A stretch of DNA of 38,068 nt from a virus (IMGVR_UViG_2534682157_000015); one strand, 5' to 3'; counted from the stretch's first letter, positions 1 through 36,688 are shown. Notes: a model not told the origin generated them from the letters alone. Numbers and translations are program-made.

Positions 1-1053
1 TTACGGGGTAATGCCAACCGCTGCCGCCACTTTGTCGCCACTTGGCAGCGTTGCCAGAGGATTGAAACGGAGCGCCGTTTCCAGATGATCCGGTGCCAGA
101 TGTGCGTAACGCATAGTCATTTTTATATCGTGGTGTCCGAGAATTTTTTGTAAGGCCAGAATGTTTCCACCCGACATCATGAAGTGCGCCGCAAACGTAT
201 GGCGCAGAACGTGTGTGAGTTGACCGCGAGGGAGCACGATAGACGTTTTTTCCATCACGGATAAAAATTGAAAATAGCAGTCTGTGAAGAAATTGAACCC
301 ATCAAGCGCCATGATCTCTTCGTAAAGCTCTTTACTGATAGGGATGCTTCTGTTTTTCTTCCCCTTCGTTCTGACAAAGGTAATTCGGTATTTGGTCACC
401 TGTGAGCGGGTAAGATTTACGGCTTCACGCCAGCGTGCGCCTGTGCTTAAGCATATCTTAACTACCAGTGCCAGAATTGGGTCCTGACGTTTGCAATCAG
501 CCAGCAATTCAACAATCTGCTCATGGGTAAGCCATGCTATCTCTTTTTCTGCGATGGTGAATTTTCGCATGTTCTCCAGTGGGTTCGGATACGACCATTC
601 GCCCAGACGGGATAGTTCGCTAAAAACACTACTTAGATAGCTTTGCTCCAGGTTAATGGTGACCGGGCTTGCTCCTTTCTTCCATTTCTCGCTGAAGTAG
701 ATCTCGCCTGTCAGGCGTTTATCTCGATAGTGGGCAAACATTTTAGAGGTGAGATCGGTTGCAAGAGGATTGCCTAGGGCGTCAACCATCAGCAGCAATT
801 TGTCATAGACATGCTGTCCAGCAGTCAGAGATTTACCATGTAGTTTGAACCATAGCTCAACCACGTCTTTCAGGGTTCGACGATCCACTGATTCGCCCAG
901 CCAGGGCTTTGATTCGGTTTCTTCCATCGTGTGACGCTCAAAAGCCAGAGCTTCGCCTTTGGTGGCGAATTGTTTACGCACACGACGCCCACTTCGTCCG
1001 GCGGGGTAACATTCGCAAAGCCATTTCCCTGTGGTGAGTTTTCGTACTGCCAT
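1..1053 (-). CDS. int: Tyrosine integrase (P2 Int-like), 350 aa
   Basis: Translation starts MAVRKL (P2 Int-like N-terminus) with GGAGG-like SD upstream; catalytic-box-like segments LSTGARWREA, HVLRHTFAAH, MRYAHLAP; ORF-track start at 1209 is likely an upstream over-extension. Confidence 0.9.
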   Translation of the reverse strand: MAVRKLTTGKWLCECYPAGRSGRRVRKQFATKGEALAFERHTMEETESKPWLGESVDRRTLKDVVELWFKLHGKSLTAGQHVYDKLLLMVDALGNPLATDLTSKMFAHYRDKRLTGEIYFSEKWKKGASPVTINLEQSYLSSVFSELSRLGEWSYPNPLENMRKFTIAEKEIAWLTHEQIVELLADCKRQDPILALVVKICLSTGARWREAVNLTRSQVTKYRITFVRTKGKKNRSIPISKELYEEIMALDGFNFFTDCYFQFLSVMEKTSIVLPRGQLTHVLRHTFAAHFMMSGGNILALQKILGHHDIKMTMRYAHLAPDHLETALRFNPLATLPSGDKVAAAVGITP

Positions 1054-1241
1054 AAAAAATGCCCTCCAGTAGAGAGCATTTTTACTGTATGTATAACCAG
1101 TATCAATGTATGAAATCCTACGACCATACATCTCACTGAAGCCATAATGAAGTTGGCTATTCTTTTTGCTATGTGAGCATGTAACTTTTGCGGTTAACCT
1201 GCGGCTCATTTTTATTTTAGACGCAGATATAAAAGCAAAAG

Positions 1242-1448: not shown

Positions 1449-2018
1449 CTATTTAACATACTTGACTGTTAAACTTATAATTCTACCAATTATTTCAATG
1501 TCTTCTATCTTGCATTCGAAGGCCCTGTTTCCACCCTCGACGAAGATTCTTCCACCGGGTAAACGAGTAATGTCACGGATCGTTATTTCGCCATCAATAC
1601 TTATTACCCATTTACCATCACGTATATCATCAAATTCTTTATCACAAATAAATTCAGAATTGTTATCTGTGATGACAAAAGGTTTTTTAAACGTAGAGGG
1701 TAGAAATCCCTTATCAAAAATATAAAAACCGTCTTTCTGCAATGCTCCATCAGACAATAAATATTTTTCTACTTCTATAGTATTTGTATTTGCTGATGCT
1801 TGCTTTGAACCATGCCCTGTTGTTAGCCAATTAAGCGAGGTGCCCGTTTCAAGGGCGCACTGGATTACCCAATCTGCTGGAAAAATATCACGCATATAGC
1901 GCGTTGCCATGGTGCTCTTAGAAACACCTAAATGATCACAGAGAGCCTGACGAGTACCGAACCCATATGCTTCAACTAAACGTTCTATGGCTTTCTTACC
2001 GCCGCTATTGAAATCCAC
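1449..2018 (-). CDS. cI: CI-type immunity repressor (phage 186 CI-like), about 189 aa
   Basis: Motifs VEAYGF, CALETG...NWLTTG and C-terminal ITRLPGG...FECKIEDIEIIGRI resemble 186 CI as recalled; GTG start at 2018 preceded by GGAGG (track ORF extends to 2105). Confidence 0.75.
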   Translation of the reverse strand: MDFNSGGKKAIERLVEAYGFGTRQALCDHLGVSKSTMATRYMRDIFPADWVIQCALETGTSLNWLTTGHGSKQASANTNTIEVEKYLLSDGALQKDGFYIFDKGFLPSTFKKPFVITDNNSEFICDKEFDDIRDGKWVISIDGEITIRDITRLPGGRIFVEGGNRAFECKIEDIEIIGRIISLTVKYVK

Positions 2019-2163: not shown

Positions 2164-2367
2164 ATGACACCTAACATTTCAATTACTCTGAATACACCAC
2201 ATGTCACAATCGAACGTTATAGCGAACTGACTGGCCTTTCTATTGATACGATTAACGACATGTTGGCTGATGGCCGACTACCTCGTCATCGTCTTCGTAA
2301 AGACAAAAAACGTGAAAAGGTAATGATTAACCTGGCTGCTCTGACTGTTGATGCTTTGTCTGCTTAA
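2164..2367 (+). CDS. apl: Apl/Cox-like small DNA-binding protein (excisionase / switch repressor), 67 aa
   Basis: First gene of the early rightward operon, small basic protein, position equivalent to 186 apl / P2 cox. Confidence 0.5.
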
Positions 2368-3362: not shown

Positions 3363-3704
3363 ATGGCAATTAATGGCGCTGCGGCGACTGTTCCATTAAG
3401 CCCAGGTGAACGCCTGAATGGACTTAATCATATTGCGGAATTAAGGGCGAAAGTATTTGGCCTGAATATTGAGTCAGAGCTTGAGCGGTTTATTAAAGAT
3501 ATGCGTGATCCACGGGATATCAATAATGAACAAAATAAACGGGCACTGGCTGCCATATTCTTTATGGCAAAAATTCCAGCTGAACGTCATAGCATCAGCA
3601 TTAATGAGCTGACCACTGACGAAAAGCGGGAGCTGATTAAAGCAATGAATCATTTTCGTGCAGTGGTGAGCTTATTTCCCAGACGGCTAACCATGCCGAA
3701 TTAA
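3363..3704 (+). CDS. Hypothetical early protein, 113 aa
   Basis: ORF in early operon, ATG start. Confidence 0.5.
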   Translation: MAINGAAATVPLSPGERLNGLNHIAELRAKVFGLNIESELERFIKDMRDPRDINNEQNKRALAAIFFMAKIPAERHSISINELTTDEKRELIKAMNHFRAVVSLFPRRLTMPN

Positions 3705-3771
3705 CCAACTAATGAAATTAATGGCGTAAACCCGCCGGGCATCCCTTTATCTAAATTCAGGAGAATTGATT

Positions 3772-4005
3772 ATGCGTAATATTGAAACCCTCACGACTAA
3801 AACCGGACCGGATGACGCAGGGCTTAATATTTTACTGACAGAGGCTCGTCTGGAAGAACGCCGGGCAAGGGCTGAAGCAATGGCTGCCCGCCTTGATAGT
3901 CTTGCGTGTCATATCACATCCCGCCAGCTAAACCACGTCGAAGCGGCAGAACTGCTGCGTGTGACCGCTGAAGCAATCCAGAACGAAGCGCAGGAGATCC
4001 ACTAA
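3772..4005 (+). CDS. Hypothetical early protein, 77 aa
   Basis: ATG at 3772 with AGGAG SD; stop overlaps next start (TAATG). Confidence 0.5.
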   Translation: MRNIETLTTKTGPDDAGLNILLTEARLEERRARAEAMAARLDSLACHITSRQLNHVEAAELLRVTAEAIQNEAQEIH

Positions 4006-4232
4006 TGGCTGATGCAATGGATCTCGTACAGCAGCGCGTTGAAGAAGAACGCCAGCGCCATATCCGTGCTGCCCGTGCCAAAACACCGGGCGTGTCTCGC
4101 GTGCTTTGCATTGAATGTGAAGCGCCAATTCCGCCAGCACGACGCCGCGCCATTCCGGGAGTGCAGTTTTGCATTACCTGTCAGGAAATCGCAGAACTGA
4201 AAGGCAAACATTACAACGGAGGTGCTGTATGA
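4005..4232 (+). CDS. TraR/DksA-family C4 zinc-finger protein, 75 aa
   Basis: CxxC-17-CxxC arrangement (CIECEAP ... CITCQEI) typical of phage TraR/DksA-like proteins. Confidence 0.7.
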   Translation: MADAMDLVQQRVEEERQRHIRAARAKTPGVSRVLCIECEAPIPPARRRAIPGVQFCITCQEIAELKGKHYNGGAV

Positions 4233-5086
4233 GCACCATCCTGAAATGGGCGGGAAATAAAACGGCCATTATGGCAGAACTGAAAAAATACCTTCCTGCT
4301 GGCCCGCGACTGGTTGAACCTTTCGCGGGTTCCTGTGCAGTGATGATGGAGACGGATTACCCCAGCTATCTGGTTGCGGATATTAATCCTGATTTAATCA
4401 ACCTCTATAAAAAGGTTGCCGCTGATTGTGAATCGTTTATATCTCGCGCCAGAGTTTTATTTGAGATCGCAAACAGGGAGGTGGCTTATTACAACATAAG
4501 GCAGGAGTTTAATTACTCAACTGAAATTACTGATTTCATGAAAGCGGTATATTTCCTGTATCTCAATCGTCACGGTTACCGTGGTTTATGTCGCTATAAC
4601 AAGAGCGGGCATTTCAACATTCCCTACGGTAATTATAAAAATCCGTATTTCCCTGAAAAAGAAATTCGCGCATTTGCAGAAAAGGCCCAGCGAGCAACGT
4701 TTATCTGCGCCAGCTTTGATGAAACGCTGGCGATGTTGAAGGCGGGGGATGTGGTGTATTGCGATCCGCCGTATGACGGTACGTTTTCCGGCTATCACAC
4801 TGACGGCTTCACTGAAGATGACCAGTATCACCTGGCATCTGTTCTTGAACATCGGTCATCAGAAGGACATCCGGTCATTGTTTCTAACAGTGACACATCC
4901 CTGATCCGTTCGCTGTATCGCAATTTTACTCACCACTACATCAAGGCAAAACGCAGCATCGGTGTGGCAGCTGGCGAGGGTAAATCAGCAACAGAAATCA
5001 TTGCTGTTTCCGGGCCGCGCTGCTGGGTGGGATTTGATTATTCGCGTGGCGTGGATAGTTCTGCCGTGTACGGAGTACGTGCATGA
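4229..5086 (+). CDS. dam: DNA adenine methyltransferase (Dam family), 285 aa
   Basis: N-terminal [11 protein letters not shown]-binding motif and DPPY catalytic motif; start overlaps previous stop (ATGA). Confidence 0.9.
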
Positions 5087-7497
5087 GTCATGCCGATATG
5101 AACAACTGCTGCGGCTTTAACGAAGCTGCCGCATCGTTCTCATGGAACAGCCCGAAAAAGGCCATTAACCCTTATCTGGACCCGGCGGAAGTTGCGCCGG
5201 TTTCTGCGCTTTCAAACCTGATCACTCTGTACGCTACCGATAACGAGCAGGAACAACTGCGCCGCGAGGCACTGAGTGATCAGGTCTGGGAGCGTTATTT
5301 CTTTAATGAATCCCGTGATCCTGTCCAACGCGAAATGGAGCAGGATAAGCTCATTAGCCGGGCAAAGATGGCGCATGAGCAGCAGCGTTTTAATCCAGAC
5401 ATGGTCATTCTGGCGGACGTCAACGCCCAGCCTTCCCATATCAGCAAGCCGCTGATGCAACGTATTGAATATTTCAGCAGCCTGGGCAGGCCAAAGGCTT
5501 ATTCCCGCTATTTGCGTGAGACGATTAAGCCATGTCTGGAACGACTGGAGCATGTACGCGACAGCCAGCTATCTGCATCTTTTCGTTTTATGGCAAGCCA
5601 TGAAGGGCTGGACGGCCTGCTGATCCTGCCTGAAATGAGTCAGGATCAGGTGAAACGCCTGTCTACTCTTGTCGCTGCGCATATGAGTATGTGTCTTGAT
5701 GCCGCTTGTGGTGATTTGTACGCCTCCGATGATGTTAAGCCAGAAGAAATCCGCAAGACATGGGAAAAGGTGGCAGCAGAAACCCTGCGACTGGATGTCA
5801 TACCGCCTGCGTTTGAGCAACTCCGCCGGAAAAGAAACCGCCGCAAACCTGTGCCTTATGAACTCATTCCGGGTTCGCTGGCGCGTATGCTGTGCGCCGA
5901 CTGGTGGTATCGGAAATTATGGAAGATGCGTTGCGAATGGCGGGAAGAGCAGTTGCGTGCTGTCTGCCTGGTCAGCAAAAAAGCATCTCCCTATGTCAGC
6001 TATGAAGCCGTGATGCATAAACGTGAGCAGCGCCGTAAGTCGCTGGAGTTTTTCCGTTCTCATGAACTGGTGAACGAAGACGGCGACACGCTGAACATGG
6101 AGGATGTGGTAAACGCCAGCAGCAGCAACCCGGCGCATCGCCGCAACGAGATGATGGCCTGTGTTAAAGGCCTGGAGCTTATCGCGGAAATGCGTGGTGA
6201 CTGCGCCGTTTTCTACACCATCACCTGTCCGTCACGTTTCCATTCCACGCTAAATAACGGCAGGCCAAACCCGACCTGGACCAACGCGACAGTAAGACAA
6301 AGCAGCGATTATCTGGTCGGCATGTTTGCTGCATTTCGTAAGGCTATGCACAAAGCCGGGTTGCGCTGGTATGGCGTGCGGGTGGCTGAGCCGCATCATG
6401 ACGGCACAGTTCACTGGCACCTGTTGTGTTTCATGCGCAAAAAAGACCGCCGTGCCATCACTGCATTACTGCGTAAGTTTGCCATCCGTGAAGACCGCGA
6501 GGAGCTGGGCAATAACACTGGGCCGCGCTTTAAGTCTGAGTTGATTAACCCGCGCAAAGGAACGCCGACAAGCTACATCGCGAAATATATCAGTAAGAAC
6601 ATTGACGGTCGTGGTCTGGCTGGCGAGATCAGCAAGGAAACGGGTAAATCTCTGCGTGATAACGCTGAATACGTGAATGCGTGGGCGTCTCTGCATCGTG
6701 TTCAGCAATTCCGCTTCTTTGGTATTCCGGGGCGTCAGGCTTACCGTGAACTTCGCTTGCTGGCTGGTCAGGCGGCAAGGCAACAGGGTGACAAAAAAGC
6801 AGGTGCGCCGGTACTGGATAACCCGCGTCTTGATGCCATTCTGGCTGCTGCTGATGCTGGTTGTTTTGCCACCTACATCATGAAGCAGGGCGGCGTACTG
6901 GTTCCCCGTAAATATCACCTCATCAGAACCGCTTATGAAATCAACAAAGAGCCGACCGCCTATGGCGATCACGGCATTCGTATTTATGGCATCTGGTCAC
7001 CCATTGCAGAGGGCAAGATCTGCACTCATGCAGTGAAGTGGAAAATGGTTCGTAAAGCCGTTGACGTTCAGGAGGCGGCAGCCGACCAGGGCGCTTGCGC
7101 CCCTTGGACTCGTGGCAATAACTGTCCCCTTGCTGAAAATTTGAACCAACAGGAGAAAGATAAATCAGCAGATGGGGACCCCAGAACGGACATTACCAGC
7201 ATGGATGACAAGGAGTTGCACGATTTCCTGCACAGTATGAGCAAAAAAGAGCGCCGAGAACTGGCAGCAAGGTTACGCCTGGTTAAACCGATACGGCGTA
7301 AAGACTACCAACAGCGAATTACAGACCATCAGCGACTGCAGCTCGTCTATGAGCTGAAGTCCAGAGGATTTGATGGTAGCGAGAAAGAGGTCGATTTACT
7401 CCTTCGCGGCGGCAGTATTCCGTCAGGAGCAGGCCTGCGTATCTTCTATCGGAACCAGCGTTTGCGGGAAGATGATAAGTGGCGGAACCTGTATTAA
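5083..7497 (+). CDS. A: Replication initiation endonuclease A (rolling-circle HUH Rep, P2 gpA-like), 804 aa
   Basis: HUH-like HWHLL motif and paired tyrosines YIAKYISK; size and position as P2/186 A. Confidence 0.9.
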
Positions 7498-7590
7498 TTA
7501 CGCGGGTTAACAATTCGTGCTCTTAATAATACCCGGCATATCAGGCTGATGAACGTAAAAAACGTTTTACATCAGTAAGATTATTATATA

Positions 7591-7606
7591 CTGTAAATAT
7601 AAACAG
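7591..7606. promoter_or_regulatory. LexA box (SOS operator) CTGTAAATATAAACAG
   Basis: Perfect CTGT-N8-ACAG with AT-rich spacer, 44 nt upstream of the ATG at 7650. Confidence 0.7.
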
Positions 7607-7649
7607 TGGATATGTATACAGTATTGCTTGTGGTGTCATAGGAGGAAAA

Positions 7650-7838
7650 ATGCAGGACTATTTTTTGGAGTCTTTGAAGCTCCAGCGCATTGATTTTTTT
7701 CTTAAGCTTGTAGCGGCTAGTGAGTGTAGTGATGAAGAGAAGGGGCTGGCTCTGCAGTGGGTTTCTGAATTGACTGATGAACTCATGGCAAAAATCAGAA
7801 CTCACGAATACAACCGCTCAATGGATGTCATCAGTTGA
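7650..7838 (+). CDS. Small protein downstream of LexA box; possible N-terminal part of a Tum-like antirepressor, 62 aa
   Basis: GGAGG SD; position matches the SOS-controlled tum locus of 186; continues into the DinI-like frame if an A5 run (7790-7794) is read as A4. Confidence 0.4.
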   Translation: MQDYFLESLKLQRIDFFLKLVAASECSDEEKGLALQWVSELTDELMAKIRTHEYNRSMDVIS

Positions 7839-7848
7839 GGTGACTTTT

Positions 7849-8082
7849 ATGCGCATTGAAATAATGATCGATAAAGAGCAGAAGATTAGCCAGTCTACCC
7901 TGGACGCCCTTGAATCCGAGCTTTACCGCAATCTGCGCCCCCTGTATCCCAAAACGGTAATTCGTATCCGTAAAGGTAGCTCTAACGGTGTGGAACTGAC
8001 CGGACTGCAACTGGACGAAGAAAGAAAACAAGTGATGAAAATTATGCAGAAGGTGTGGGAAGACAACAGCTGGCTGCATTAA
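7849..8082 (+). CDS. DinI-family protein, 77 aa
   Basis: MRIEIMIDKEQ ... C-terminal WEDNSW resembles DinI (MRIEV... WE...W) as recalled; GAGGTG SD. Confidence 0.7.
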   Translation: MRIEIMIDKEQKISQSTLDALESELYRNLRPLYPKTVIRIRKGSSNGVELTGLQLDEERKQVMKIMQKVWEDNSWLH

Positions 8083-8090
8083 GAAACGTT

Positions 8091-8121
8091 GCTGGCGTCA
8101 GTAATTAATTCTGACGCCAGC
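8091..8121. terminator. GC-rich perfect palindrome between convergent operons (possible bidirectional terminator)
   Basis: GCTGGCGTCAG-9nt-CTGACGCCAGC, 11-bp stem; no clean U-tract. Confidence 0.35.
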
Positions 8122-8176
8122 ACGTTGAACAGCAAGTAAGTCAAGGTGTTAGTTAAAAAAACACCTTATAAGCCAT

Positions 8177-8860
8177 CTATGATTGAAGAGCAATCTTTCT
8201 CAACGTATCAAATACAATTTTTGTAAAATTATTTTCATTTTTAACGTCAATGTAAGCAAGAGCGTTATTAGTAATTTTAAGTTTACCAGAATACTCTAAT
8301 GAATTAACGGAGCAAACAAGTTTGTCAATTCTTATTTTCTTCCCCTCTAATTCTTCTTTATAATATTTTCTAAGGTCACTGCTGCCAATTATTTGCATTT
8401 TAGCTGTAGCGTAATCAGCGACTCTAACTCTAGAAATATCCAGCTGTGTTAGATTTATATTCACATTTGAAGATATTTCGTTGAGCCAGTCCATCGGATT
8501 TATATCAATCTCTTCTAGGCTAACGCCTAAGCCAAGATTTCTGACTAAGGCCTGTGAAAACGGTTTTAAAGTTCGCGGAGGGTTAGTAAGTTGCATTATA
8601 GGAAGAGTATCTAAAGATACACTGAAATTAGTAGTGCGGTATTCGACTCTTTCTACGATAGTTTCGCTTCCGTCAAAATTAGAAACTTGATCGTGATAAA
8701 TAATACGCTCAACAAAGCGTCCATGTGCAGAATCATGACGTATTTTATCAAAAATAAACCCTTTCCCCTTATCCTCGGTAAAAGAATCAAGAGAAAGACG
8801 TTTAACAGCTTTTTCAAATTCAAGCCGTATGTTTAATTTGAGCCACTTAACCTTCTTCAT
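8177..8860 (-). CDS. Hypothetical protein, third gene of accessory operon (227 aa)
   Basis: Start lies 14 nt inside the 3' end of the previous gene; no family recognised. Confidence 0.6.
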   Translation of the reverse strand: MKKVKWLKLNIRLEFEKAVKRLSLDSFTEDKGKGFIFDKIRHDSAHGRFVERIIYHDQVSNFDGSETIVERVEYRTTNFSVSLDTLPIMQLTNPPRTLKPFSQALVRNLGLGVSLEEIDINPMDWLNEISSNVNINLTQLDISRVRVADYATAKMQIIGSSDLRKYYKEELEGKKIRIDKLVCSVNSLEYSGKLKITNNALAYIDVKNENNFTKIVFDTLRKIALQS

Positions 8861-9926
8861 GTTCGTTTACCTCTGGTCCTATTATTATATTATAGGCATT
8901 TTCAGCGGCTGACTCAATTAATTCACTAATATGTCTTTTCTCTTGTGCCGTTGCCGCACGAATTGTCACATTGAATCCGTCTTCTTTTTGATTATTTATC
9001 CCTTTAATTTGATAGGCAAAGTCACAGCAATTTTCAGAGTCTTTGAAAAATGCTTCAACGTTAATTCTGTCACCAACTCCACTTGTCGGTTTTGAAGACC
9101 ATGCGATACGGCCTATATAATAACCTTTCTCGTGTAGTTGAGAAAATATAGGCGAACTATTAACACCTTCACCATTCAAAACAGCTTTCTTGACGAATCC
9201 GGTATCGATTGTTTCTTCTTTGTCTTCATCTTCACTTGCGTCAATATTGCGATTTAATTCTACTTTCGTTACATCATCAGTCTCATAACCATGTAGTCCA
9301 TTCATTAACTCTTGAAAGAACTGGCTTCGCAATGTAGGGTCAGTGATTGCCATTAAAGAAATTTCAAAACGTTCAATAGGCTCAGATTTGATTTTAGACA
9401 GCTCGTTTTGCAGACCCTCAATAACTTTTTTTGCCTCAGGATTCTGTGGCATACGTACTTCAACCTTGTCAACACCAGGGCGAAGTTCTATTATGACATT
9501 CCGTTTATCTATTTGACGCAGAGCGGTTTTAGATAAGTCTATTTCTTCATAGTTATATTCTACTGTCAGAGAACCATCTTTTTTCGCTACGATATTCAAG
9601 CTTTGCCCTTTACTGGGTGAACATGTTTTTTTCAATGCTTCAGCTGCGCTCTTTAATTCGGCCTGATTTGTTGTGGTCTGAAAACTCACACTGGTAATGC
9701 TTTCTCTTGGATCATATGTTTTGACCATCTTTTTTATATGCTCTAATTCATTAAAACCATGGGGGAGTTTTGATATTTCCTCGATAAGTATTTCCTTGTC
9801 GAGTTCTGGTGATAAAAAAACACCTCTATTTAGCAATAATTCATGTAATTTTGCAGGGGTTATTCTTTTATGATGCAAAGCATCATAAATATTCTTGTCA
9901 GTCGCAAAGTATAATTTTTTAGCCAT
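8847..9926 (-). CDS. Hypothetical protein, second gene of accessory operon (359 aa)
   Basis: Start overlaps upstream stop; acidic patch SEDEDKEETID; no family recognised. Confidence 0.6.
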   Translation of the reverse strand: MAKKLYFATDKNIYDALHHKRITPAKLHELLLNRGVFLSPELDKEILIEEISKLPHGFNELEHIKKMVKTYDPRESITSVSFQTTTNQAELKSAAEALKKTCSPSKGQSLNIVAKKDGSLTVEYNYEEIDLSKTALRQIDKRNVIIELRPGVDKVEVRMPQNPEAKKVIEGLQNELSKIKSEPIERFEISLMAITDPTLRSQFFQELMNGLHGYETDDVTKVELNRNIDASEDEDKEETIDTGFVKKAVLNGEGVNSSPIFSQLHEKGYYIGRIAWSSKPTSGVGDRINVEAFFKDSENCCDFAYQIKGINNQKEDGFNVTIRAATAQEKRHISELIESAAENAYNIIIGPEVNEHEEG

Positions 9927-34458: not shown

Positions 34459-34548
34459 TTCTTCGCAATGGAGAACTTTTAAGTTTGCGAAATGGAATAA
34501 TGCGGTATCATTATTGTGATTTTAGCAAAAATGGGGAGAACTCGAAAA

Positions 34549-34767
34549 ATGATGATTTGCCCACTGTGTGGAAGTGCCGCCCATACTCGCAGCAGTTTTC
34601 AGGTATCTTCATTGACCAAAGAGCGTTACAACCAGTGCCAGAATATTAACTGCAGCCATACTTTTGTTACCCATGAAACTTTTGTTCGTTCGATTGCAAC
34701 GCCAAAAGAGTCAAATCCGGTTCAGCCGCATCCAATGAAATCAGGACAGGTGGCGCTCTCTCTTTGA
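34549..34767 (+). CDS. ogr: Ogr/B-type zinc-finger late-gene activator, about 72 aa
   Basis: CPLCG ... CQNINCSHTF Cys4 arrangement; last phage gene before the host junction. Confidence 0.8.
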   Translation: MMICPLCGSAAHTRSSFQVSSLTKERYNQCQNINCSHTFVTHETFVRSIATPKESNPVQPHPMKSGQVALSL

Positions 34768-34853
34768 CGCTGCCGCCATTTTGTCGCCATCGATAAAAAA
34801 CAGTGCTTCTAACATCATGATTTTAAAAGGCATAAATTTCAGGCAACAAAAAA

Positions 34854-34890
34854 CCCATCAACCTTGAACCGAAATGGCGGGGTTGATGGG
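34854..34890 (-). terminator. Hairpin plus T-tract on minus strand; probable host intrinsic terminator downstream of ybjL
   Basis: CCCATCAACC-17nt-GGTTGATGGG followed on minus strand by TTTTTTGTT. Confidence 0.4.
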
Positions 34891-35002
34891 CTCCACAAAA
34901 TGGGGACATCAAAGAAAAGCAGTGGCACTAATTAAGACTGATGCCCTGCGGAAAAGTTCTGCGGTTGTGCAAAAAAATTTCATTTTCAGGGCAACTTCAG
35001 TT

Positions 35003-36688
35003 TTATCCTAATCCTGGCCATACCATGACGATGATTGTCCCTGCCAGCGTCAGCAGGACGTTGGCGATTGCATAGGTGCCCGCATAGCCCAGCGCCGGGA
35101 TGTTACTGCGAGCTGTATCACTGATGATCTCCATTGCCGGCGCGCAGGTACGTGCGCCCATCATTGCGCCGAACAACAGTGCGCGGTTCATTCGCAATAC
35201 ATAAGCACCGAACAAGAAACAGATAACCACGGGCACCAGACTGACAATCAATCCGGCAATCAACATCTGACCGCCAATCGCGCCCAGGCCGTTATTAATA
35301 CCGCTACCGGCGCTCAGACCAACGCCTGCCATAAACACCATCAAGCCGAACTCTTTCACCATGCTTAATGCACCTTGCGGAATGTAACCGAAGGTCGGGT
35401 GGTTAGCACGCATAAAGCCCAGCATAATTCCGGCGAATAACAACCCGGCAGCGTTCCCCATGCCGAAACTGAATGTGCTGAACTGGAAGGTGATCATCCC
35501 GATCATCAGCCCAATAACAAAGAAGGCGCAGAATGCCAGCAGGTCAGTGACCTGGCTGTGAATCGAGATAAAGCCGATGCGATCGGCGATGGTTTTTACG
35601 CGGCGGGCATCGCCGCTGACTTGTAAAACGTCACCTTTGTTAAGCACGACGTTGTCATCTATCGGCATCTCAATCTGGCTACGAATGACGCGGTTAAGGA
35701 AGCAACCGTGATCGGTCAACTTCAGTTGTGCGAGACGTTTACCTACAGCGTTATGGTTTTTAACGACCACTTCTTCAGTGACGATACGCATGTCGAGAAG
35801 GTCGCGATCGAAAACTTCTTTGCCGTTACGGAAGCTGGGATCGAGTCGGGCGTGGGCGTCGGGATAGCCTACCAACGCTATTTCATCGCCCATTTGTAGC
35901 ACGGCATCACCGTCTGGATTTGCCAGAATCCCGTTACGTCGAATACGTTCAATGTAGCAGCCGGTTTGTCGATAAATACCCAGTTCACGCAGATTTTTGC
36001 CGTCGGTCCAGGCCACCAGTTCCGGGCCGACGCGATAGGCGCGGATCACCGGTAAATAAACCTTACGGTTGGCATCAGTGTCCAGGCCACGTTCGCGGGC
36101 GATTTGCTGGGCGCTGGTCTGTAAGTCCTGATGCTGCAATTTCGGCAAGTAACGCGCACCAACAATCAAACTCACCAGACCGATTAAATAGGTTAAGGCA
36201 TACCCGAGGCTCAGATTATCCAGTGCCAGTGAGAGCTGCCTGCTTTCCATGCCGGAATGACGCAGTGTATCGCCAGCACCGACCAGAACCGGTGTCGACG
36301 TCATAGAGCCTGCTAACATACCGGCCGTCAGGCCAATATCCCAGCCAAACAGCTTACCTAACCCTAAGGCGATCACCAGCGCACTGCCAACCATCACCAG
36401 TGCTAACATTAGGTAATTTTTCCCATCGCGAAAAAAAATGGAAAAAAAGTTCGGTCCGGCTTCGACCCCGACGCAGAAAATAAACAGCATAAAGCCAAGA
36501 TTAAGCGCATCGGTGTTAATGCTGAAATGTTGTTGGCCTAATAACAGCGATACGACTAAAACGCCAATGGAATTACCCAGTTGGATCGAACCAAGTCGTA
36601 ACTTTCCGAGACATAGCCCAAGCGCGAGGACCACAAATAATAACAGAATGTAATTCCCATTTAACAATTCGGCGACGTTTATATTCAC
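35003..36688 (-). CDS. ybjL: Putative transport protein YbjL (AAE-type transporter), 561 aa
   Basis: Polytopic membrane protein with central soluble domain; sequence recognised as E. coli YbjL. Confidence 0.85.

Follow-up and report, generated by a model that had tools for sequence, protein, structure and literature searches.

The DNA analyzed here, a stretch of 38,068 nucleotides (IMGVR_UViG_2534682157_000015) that we call the window, is a P2/186-like (Peduoviridae) prophage of the Fels-2 type, and DuoHS of Escherichia coli HS is a close relative. In its early region, an apl/cox-like gene is followed by cII, fil, a DUF5347 gene, a DUF2732 gene, a DksA-like gene, dam and then replication gene A. 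Just past gene A stands a tum-type locus, a position that is the same in the window, in p95-tum of phage 186 and in tumA/tumB of PSP3. The features considered in this study are as follows (coordinates are those of the window).

1..1053, strand -: int, tyrosine integrase (Pfam Int_N and Phage_integrase); its start, MAVRKLTTGKWL, was read from the sequence and is common to relatives
1078..1106, strand -: promoter-like site TTGATA-17-AAAAAT upstream of int, found by a promoter scan, with a LexA-like box in its spacer
1449..2018, strand -: cI, 186-type immunity repressor and presumed target of TumA (Pfam Phage_CI_repr and Phage_CI_C)
2164..2367: apl/cox-like gene of the early region
5083..7497: replication gene A (gpA), with the putative SOS operon directly 3' of it
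7566..7571, strand +: -35 hexamer TTTACA of the predicted tumA promoter, counterpart of 186 p95 (5/6 match to TTGACA)
7587..7594, strand +: candidate -10 region, either TATACT (7587-7592, 15-bp spacer) or TACTGT (7589-7594, 17-bp spacer)
7589..7608, no strand assigned: LexA box 1, TACTGTAAATATAAACAGTG, a promoter-overlapping SOS box predicted from sequence and conservation
7604..7623, no strand assigned: candidate LexA box 2, CAGTGGATATGTATACAGTA, a colicin-type proximal box that overlaps box 1 by 5 bp
7640..7645, strand +: Shine-Dalgarno sequence AGGAGG of tumA, read from the sequence and kept in the clade
7650..7838, strand +: tumA, putative 62-aa antirepressor, homologue of the N-terminal part of 186 Tum (ATG at 7650, stop codon at 7836-7838)
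7849..8082, strand +: tumB, 77-aa DinI-family protein, counterpart of the C-terminal half of 186 Tum
8085..8126, no strand assigned: strong hairpin (-27.3 kcal/mol) at the predicted end of the operon and the border with a variable cargo region

A preliminary description of this locus had placed a small ORF with a strong Shine-Dalgarno sequence (start at 7650) past a LexA box, and behind it a DinI-like gene at 7849-8082. Both genes are there: AGGAGG at 7640-7645 precedes the ATG at 7650 of an ORF of 62 aa, and the product of the second gene matches Pfam DinI (PF06183) with an E-value of 2e-21 and 76.5 bits against a cut-off of 24.2, over the full length of the profile (positions 1-63 of 63). 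TumB also falls into PHROG 189 ('RecA filament binding protein DinI'), where it covers positions 71-148 of the 151 in the profile, and it shares 41% identity with 186 Tum over Tum residues 71-145. The gap between the tumA stop codon and tumB is 10 nt, with GAGGTG at 7837-7842. To place these genes in a wider context, we used 48 loci from Enterobacterales, one genome per species, that encode a relative of the 62-aa ORF. A tumB gene lies downstream of tumA in just 20 of these, at a distance of 9-12 nt, and the remaining picture is one of tumA under a LexA box without a nearby DinI gene (28/48 loci). Because it is present in this form, TumA is the conserved core of the module; TumB looks accessory, and probably modulates RecA filaments, hence the strength or duration of the SOS signal, as its family annotation suggests.

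The relationship of the 62-aa ORF to 186 Tum is visible by profile methods only, and pairwise BLASTP between the two finds no match. A local HMM made from 43 diverse relatives together with the window ORF recognizes residues 5-43 of 186 Tum with 33 bits, compared to 10.1 bits for the best of 4000 shuffles; the same HMM gives 38 bits for a Yersinia protein annotated as 'tum protein'. Comparison of the 62-aa family with 186 Tum by hhalign aligns residues 3-45 of both, with a probability of 96% and an E-value of 4.5e-9. Judged by sequence, the two ORFs are the two halves of 186 Tum as separate genes. The alignment of both proteins with 186 Tum and DinI, proposed earlier as a check, has thus been run, and they are related, TumA by profile methods only. 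The TumA protein of PSP3 goes unrecognized by the family HMM (2.6 bits), and its BLASTP comparison with 186 Tum is negative as well; we do not claim sequence homology of the 62-aa ORF to PSP3 TumA, with which it shares the layout alone.

Close homologues of TumA are readily found. It is 98.4% identical to STM2728 of Fels-2, 88.7% identical to the SopEPhi protein, and identical in 61 of 62 positions to ECHS_RS04495 of E. coli HS, which has been published as 'tum'; a large protein collection holds 492 matches. When a profile of close relatives was searched against 1.84 billion representatives, 87 cluster representatives were obtained (E<0.001), nearly all of 50-75 aa. There was no fused Tum of about 146 aa among those 87 matches, which is why the wider local HMM and hhalign were needed to make the link to 186 Tum. 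The ORF has no Pfam or PADLOC match and belongs to a PHROG of unknown function. The AlphaFold model of TumA is a helical hairpin (H5-23 and H28-61, pLDDT 88); searches of the PDB, by structure with Foldseek and by sequence profile, returned generic helical hairpins and nothing significant. RefSeq, PHROGs and most phage records list the gene as 'hypothetical' or of 'unknown function', and it occasionally appears as 'levan regulatory protein'; the functional label goes to the adjacent DinI gene rather than to the 62-aa gene.

Downstream of tumB, similarity to relatives stops at about 8080-8131, a region that contains the hairpin at 8085-8126. Its folding energy has a z-score of -5.9, and folds as good were seen in 0/200 shuffles; on the + strand the hairpin has no T-run, and it was not called by the terminator scan. 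In the window we found no homologue of a third SOS-operon gene such as orf97 of 186 or STM2726 of Fels-2. Its place is taken by cargo on the opposite strand, a three-gene Hp1-3 candidate defense system. Of 5426 complete E. coli genomes, 1260 had a match to a query spanning 7400-12700 of the window.

The presumed target of TumA, the CI repressor, matches Phage_CI_repr (3.2e-31) and Phage_CI_C (2e-29), and is 33% identical to 186 CI and 86% identical to DuoHS CI. A complete Peptidase_S24 domain was not found in CI: the match scores 16 bits, compared to the cut-off of 23.3 (E 0.0097), and covers only profile positions 56-116 of 116 in the C-terminal part, so that roughly the first half of the profile is unmatched. 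This sequence is consistent with a CI of the 186 type that is not self-cleaving. The CI of Fels-2 is 39% identical to that of the window overall (69% for the N-terminal domain, 26% for the C-terminal one). Phages with TumA at least 98% identical to that of the window have CI identities of 69-81% in the N-terminal DNA-binding domain and 26-42% in the C-terminal domain; the corresponding values for 186, which has a divergent Tum, are 37% and 31%.

Upstream of tumA, a perfect CTGT-N8-ACAG operator had been noted at 7591-7606, and CTGTAAATATAAACAG stands exactly there, as the single such pattern in the window. It should be noted that this 16-mer alone is not significant, as 0.52 occurrences are expected per window, and at least one was seen in 39/100 shuffles. 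The 20-mer TACTGTAAATATAAACAGTG has three mismatches to the LexA consensus TACTGTATATATATACAGTA, and an equal match was found in 0/100 shuffles. In an alignment of six Peduoviridae genera (the window, Fels-2, PSP3, 186, a Yersinia phage and an ESSI2-like phage), TACTGT...ACAGT upstream of tum/tumA is invariant, while the flanks diverge. For the 48 loci, we counted as a box any CTG-N10-CAG that differs from the consensus in no more than five positions. In the 120 bp upstream of the tumA homologue, 42 loci have such a box, and the other 235,627 bp of the loci contain just 2; the density upstream of tumA is thus more than 800-fold above that in the rest of the same loci. The box is missing from six loci, one of which is cut by a contig end, and several of the box-less loci (L040, L056) also have a truncated ORF, as expected of decaying prophages. 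Since box 1 is invariant across genera with diverging flanks, and since boxes are enriched upstream of tumA, box 1 is not a chance match, and we infer from these sequence patterns that it is bound by LexA.

Box 1 overlaps both candidate -10 hexamers of the predicted tumA promoter. One of these, TACTGT, is the hexamer annotated as the p95 -10 in the 186 record, and the position of TTTACA corresponds to the annotated p95 -35 in the same record. Among 23 aligned upstream regions of the Fels-2-like clade, there are three conserved blocks, namely the A-tract with TTTAC(A), the stretch from TATACTGT to the end of the operator, and the Shine-Dalgarno sequence; the spacer between -35 and -10 and the stretch from the operator to the Shine-Dalgarno sequence are variable. 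The tumA promoter was not called by a consensus scan because its -10 is weak, a property that it has in common with the 186 promoter annotated as SOS-dependent.

The operator appears to be double. Together, boxes 1 and 2 make up a 35-bp element laid out like the operators of colicins E1 and Y, with overlapping boxes downstream of the -35, the second of which has a degenerate left half. A sensitive plasmid search with 7560-7650 matched small Col plasmids over window positions 7589-7625, immediately 5' of the genes for colicin Y (cya) and colicin E1 (cea); the operators align base for base (TACTGTAAATATAAACAGTGGATATGTATACAGTATT in the window, TACTGTACATAAAACCAGTGGTTATGTATACAGTATT for colicin Y). 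The double layout is present in 21 of the 48 loci, all of the Fels-2-like clade, and in 21 others there is one box, near the ribosome-binding site; single boxes are also seen in 186, PSP3, the Yersinia phage and the ESSI2-like phage. The three best sites for a LexA matrix in the whole window, on both strands, are a box upstream of int, box 1 and box 2, with a wide margin to the next site; the matrix was home-made and missed published heterology indices by up to 3.6 units, and only its rank order within the window was used.

The best LexA-like site of the window by this matrix is thus not the one at tumA; it is TACTGGTTATACATACAGTA at 1083-1102, about 30 nt upstream of the int start. This putative site has three mismatches to the LexA consensus. 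In phages of the same int lineage, the box is kept and its spacer changes, and ESSI2_ev040 has a perfect CTGT-N8-ACAG. Phages with int directly or closely downstream of cI, such as 186, lack the box. A pattern scan of IMG/VR gave at least 120 matches, and among the matches listed at least 112 had an int start about 30 nt later; the pattern had fixed CTG and CAG bases, and the scan therefore speaks to the link with int and to the variety of spacers, not to conservation of the half-sites. These sequences suggest that a LexA-repressed promoter of its own may drive int, uncoupled from the cI transcript.

Published experiments on relatives of the window bear directly on its function. DuoHS no longer gives lysis or viral foci in response to mitomycin C when it carries an in-frame Δtum, or when its host has a lexA(Ind-) allele (Phollow study, Nat Microbiol 2025, PMC12055606). 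We mapped the primers of that deletion to the window: NHR24 corresponds to 7630-7652 with one mismatch, its end being the ATG of the 62-aa ORF; for NHR28, the 3' portion corresponds exactly to 7836-7858, from the stop codon of the ORF onward (PMC12055606). With the primers at the ORF borders, the DuoHS Δtum removes exactly the 62-aa ORF and leaves the dinI-like gene intact. The tum genes of Fels-2 and PSP3 are split by a stop codon (Lemire et al. 2011, PMC3121763), and PSP3 genetics assigned antirepressor activity to the upstream gene (PMC3121763). According to citing papers, including PMC3121763, Bunny et al. (2002) attributed to Fels-2 the lethality of a lexA null mutation in Salmonella. Exposure of Salmonella to the mutagen MX alters the expression of the Fels-2 operon STM2726-2728, with STM2727 up 5.5- to 14.8-fold (PMC2225428). 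Tum reportedly mediates the induction of SopEPhi in the inflamed gut, and this wiring has been linked to the transfer of SopEPhi there. Direct binding to CI is described for full-length 186 Tum only (Shearwin et al. 1998, as cited in PMC3121763).

Taken together, we consider it very likely that the region is a LexA-repressed tumA-tumB SOS operon, in which TumA inactivates a 186-type CI and thereby induces a Fels-2/DuoHS-like prophage. The parallel with the LexA-repressed tum locus of 186, which had been suggested from the layout, is one of true homology: TumA corresponds to residues 3-45 of Tum and TumB to residues 71-145, the position after gene A is the same, and so is the type of CI. In a lysogen, host LexA on box 1 (over the -10) and on box 2 (over the transcript start) would keep the promoter shut. 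Upon DNA damage, active RecA would cause self-cleavage of LexA, the promoter would fire, and TumA would be made. Like the N-terminal part of 186 Tum, TumA would then inactivate the non-cleavable CI, with release of the early lytic promoter and induction as the outcome. By analogy, TumA would have antirepressor activity; it would bind CI and block its operator binding, as full-length 186 Tum does. TumB, translated from a start 10 nt downstream, would have an accessory role, probably in modulating RecA filaments and the SOS signal.

Several other explanations have to be weighed against this one. TumB, rather than the 62-aa ORF, could be the inducer, for example via RecA filaments, with the small ORF serving as a leader or accessory element. 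TumB is the sole product with a curated family assignment, databases label the whole of 186 Tum as a DinI-type RecA-filament binder, and the 62-aa family is one of 'unknown function' in PHROGs and is absent from Pfam. However, the DuoHS Δtum joins the start codon of the 62-aa ORF to its stop codon and spares the dinI-like gene together with its ribosome-binding site, and induction is lost all the same; the LexA-controlled tumA genes without a nearby DinI gene and the PSP3 genetics (PMC3121763) point in the same direction, and we regard an inducing TumB as very unlikely. Still less probable is induction mainly by RecA-stimulated autocleavage of CI, as in lambda, with the LexA-controlled operon only modulating SOS. 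The faint, partial Peptidase_S24 match in the C-terminal part of CI could be read in this way, but it is below the cut-off and lacks about the first half of the profile, CI fits the 186 CI families strongly, and Δtum abolishes induction in DuoHS, whose CI is 86% identical. The earlier proposal of induction through an antirepressor instead of repressor autocleavage is therefore supported, given the effect of Δtum in the near-identical DuoHS and a CI of the 186 type. Least probable of all, to the point of being hardly credible, is a chance AT-rich palindrome in place of a LexA site, with the operon constitutive or transcribed by read-through from gene A. The frequency expected for CTGT-N8-ACAG alone would allow it, and the terminator scan found no clear terminator between gene A and tumA; against it stand the zero expectation of the 20-mer match in shuffles, the invariance of the box across genera with divergent flanks, its more than 800-fold higher density upstream of tumA, and the published SOS-dependent behavior of orthologues (PMC12055606, PMC2225428).

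The LexA-repressed operon is thus the preferred reading, and within it the nature of box 2 is a separate question. Instead of a LexA site, box 2 could be a conserved element of the 5' leader, or the site of another regulator that happens to resemble colicin operators. Its left half-site is GTG and not the canonical CTG, which makes it a weak site if taken alone, and it is missing from the single-box loci of the 186, PSP3, Yersinia and ESSI2 types. Conversely, positions 7589-7625 align base for base with the double operators of colicins Y and E1, a class reported to bind two LexA dimers (PMC2994835), box 2 ranks third among all sites of the window by the LexA matrix, and in the 23 aligned sequences it is as conserved as box 1, whereas both neighboring stretches vary. 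On this basis, LexA probably binds box 2, and a role of box 2 independent of LexA is rather unlikely.

A broader reading of the window can be proposed tentatively, and we hold it to be somewhat less than probable as a whole: the prophage would be wired to LexA both at the tumA double operator and at a promoter of its own for int, and TumA would target the N-terminal domain of CI and cross-induce relatives. Five sequence comparisons of CI give a hint that the N-terminal domain may be the target of TumA, and TumA may then cross-induce co-resident relatives with repressors that otherwise differ. The colicin-type double operator may set a high, late threshold for the antirepressor. If both links to LexA are real, derepression and the supply of recombinase would both be direct SOS targets. 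Neither the double operator, nor a LexA-controlled int, nor targeting of the N-terminal domain by TumA was found in the searchable literature. Two details are possibly new, the colicin-type pair of boxes at tumA and the LexA-like box at the int promoter, both inferred at the sequence level. If real, the two would sharpen our models of where the induction threshold lies and how excision is controlled in P2-like phages. The window suggests no new principle, and its practical value is one of annotation. The module explains how P2-like prophages of a very common class respond to DNA damage, to antibiotics and to inflammation of the gut.

The element itself is already known, since a split tumA/tumB has previously been described for PSP3 and Fels-2, and the window has the same arrangement of a small ORF followed by a DinI homologue downstream of gene A. 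What is added to the preliminary description is this earlier record of the split, the finding that the small ORF itself is a Tum homologue, and the double operator. The closest system is DuoHS (ECHS_RS04495/04500), in which TumA is identical in 61/62 and TumB in 76/77 positions, with 96.6% nucleotide identity over window positions 3363-8080. DuoHS has the same double operator, integrase, int-upstream box and neighborhood (ogr, then ybjL); in contrast to the window, its CI is only 86% identical, other cargo lies downstream of tumB, and a few positions of box 2 are changed. Fels-2 (STM2728 / STM2726.1) and SopEPhi share with the window the order after gene A and the double operator, whereas Fels-2 has a third gene, STM2726, past the DinI gene. 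PSP3 resembles the window in having a small gene followed by a 77-aa DinI homologue, annotated as 'UV induction of prophage', and differs in its single LexA box and in a TumA too divergent for HMM and BLASTP.

The p95-tum SOS operon of 186 is reportedly the subject of work by Lamont (1989), Brumby (1996) and Shearwin (1998). As in the window, its -10 (TACTGT) is covered by a LexA box, and it encodes a DinI-like moiety as well as an antirepressor directed at a CI of the 186 type. Unlike in the window, the halves are fused in a protein of 146 aa with internal starts, the box is single, and orf97 comes next; the N-terminal parts of 186 Tum and TumA are related at the profile level only. The same logic, likened here by description, is found in GfoA/GftA of the Gifsy phages and in AntC of N15, where LexA represses a small antirepressor of a non-cleavable repressor (PMC3121763), and antirepressor operons of the Gifsy/N15 type often include a dinI homologue (PMC3121763). 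As for the operator, those of colicins E1 and Y likewise consist of two 20-bp boxes offset by 15 bp, and that of the colicin Y plasmid is 89% identical to the window operator over 37 bp; however, the colicin operators control a bacteriocin and the window operator a putative phage antirepressor, and the surrounding promoter sequences are unrelated.

The integrase gene int (1-1053, minus strand) is preceded by a promoter-like site whose spacer contains the LexA-like box TACTGGTTATACATACAGTA, and the int start lies about 30 nt further on.

1078-1106, minus strand: promoter-like site TTGATA-17-AAAAAT, upstream of int

This box had the top score in the window with our home-made LexA matrix, which is used for rank order within the window only. 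We found that the box is kept within the same integrase lineage; it is missing in phages with int directly after the immunity repressor gene cI, or close downstream of it. These features suggest that the integrase is under SOS control.

We compared the 186-type repressor CI, the presumed target of the antirepressor TumA (62 aa), between the window (cI, 1449-2018, minus strand) and five related phage loci (L001 and L065-L068), in which TumA is 98-100% identical. The N-terminal HTH domain of CI is conserved (69-81% identity) across these phages, and the C-terminal domains are strongly divergent (26-42% identity). Many repressor variants appear to be served by one antirepressor type. In some records (P0018; Klebsiella phage ST11-OXA245phi3.1), homologues of the 62-aa protein are named "levan regulatory (domain) protein"; no support for this name was found in the present analysis, and the label looks like a mis-annotation passed between records.

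At the junction of tumA with the downstream DinI-family gene tumB, the terminator scan picked up a small hairpin, through which translation of tumB could be coupled to that of tumA.

7827-7844: small hairpin GTCATCAGTTGAGGTGAC, spanning the tumA stop codon and the tumB ribosome-binding site GAGGTG

The window takes in the prophage from the int stop codon to past ogr (regions considered here: 34516-36688 and 1-44). A 561-aa ORF (35003-36688) occupies the position of ybjL, which is next after ogr in E. coli HS, and the primers for deletion of DuoHS, the near-identical prophage of that strain, match exactly at 7-44 and with three mismatches at 34768-34807. Because of this ogr/ybjL-type neighbourhood and the primer matches, the chromosomal site of the prophage is the same as that of DuoHS in E. 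coli HS.

The cargo region, located between the early/replication genes and the late (capsid and packaging) genes, contains the following features.

8177-10927, minus strand: three AT-rich genes matching the PADLOC models Hp3, Hp2 and Hp1
11477-12559, plus strand: 360-aa ORF

The Hp matches are full-length (E 5e-144 to 5e-245), one homologue of these genes is labeled in RefSeq as a PD-(D/E)XK nuclease, and the set is a candidate three-gene anti-phage system. The 360-aa ORF lies inside a 1,767-bp interval between the end of the Hp1 gene (10927) and the start of the next large minus-strand ORF (12694); its sole match is a weak one to Peptidase_M48 (E 1.6e-5), with no match in PADLOC or PHROG. 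Gene content at the Hp position varies among related prophages: where the window has the Hp genes, phage 186 has orf97 and Fels-2 has STM2726; DuoHS has cargo unlike the Hp genes.
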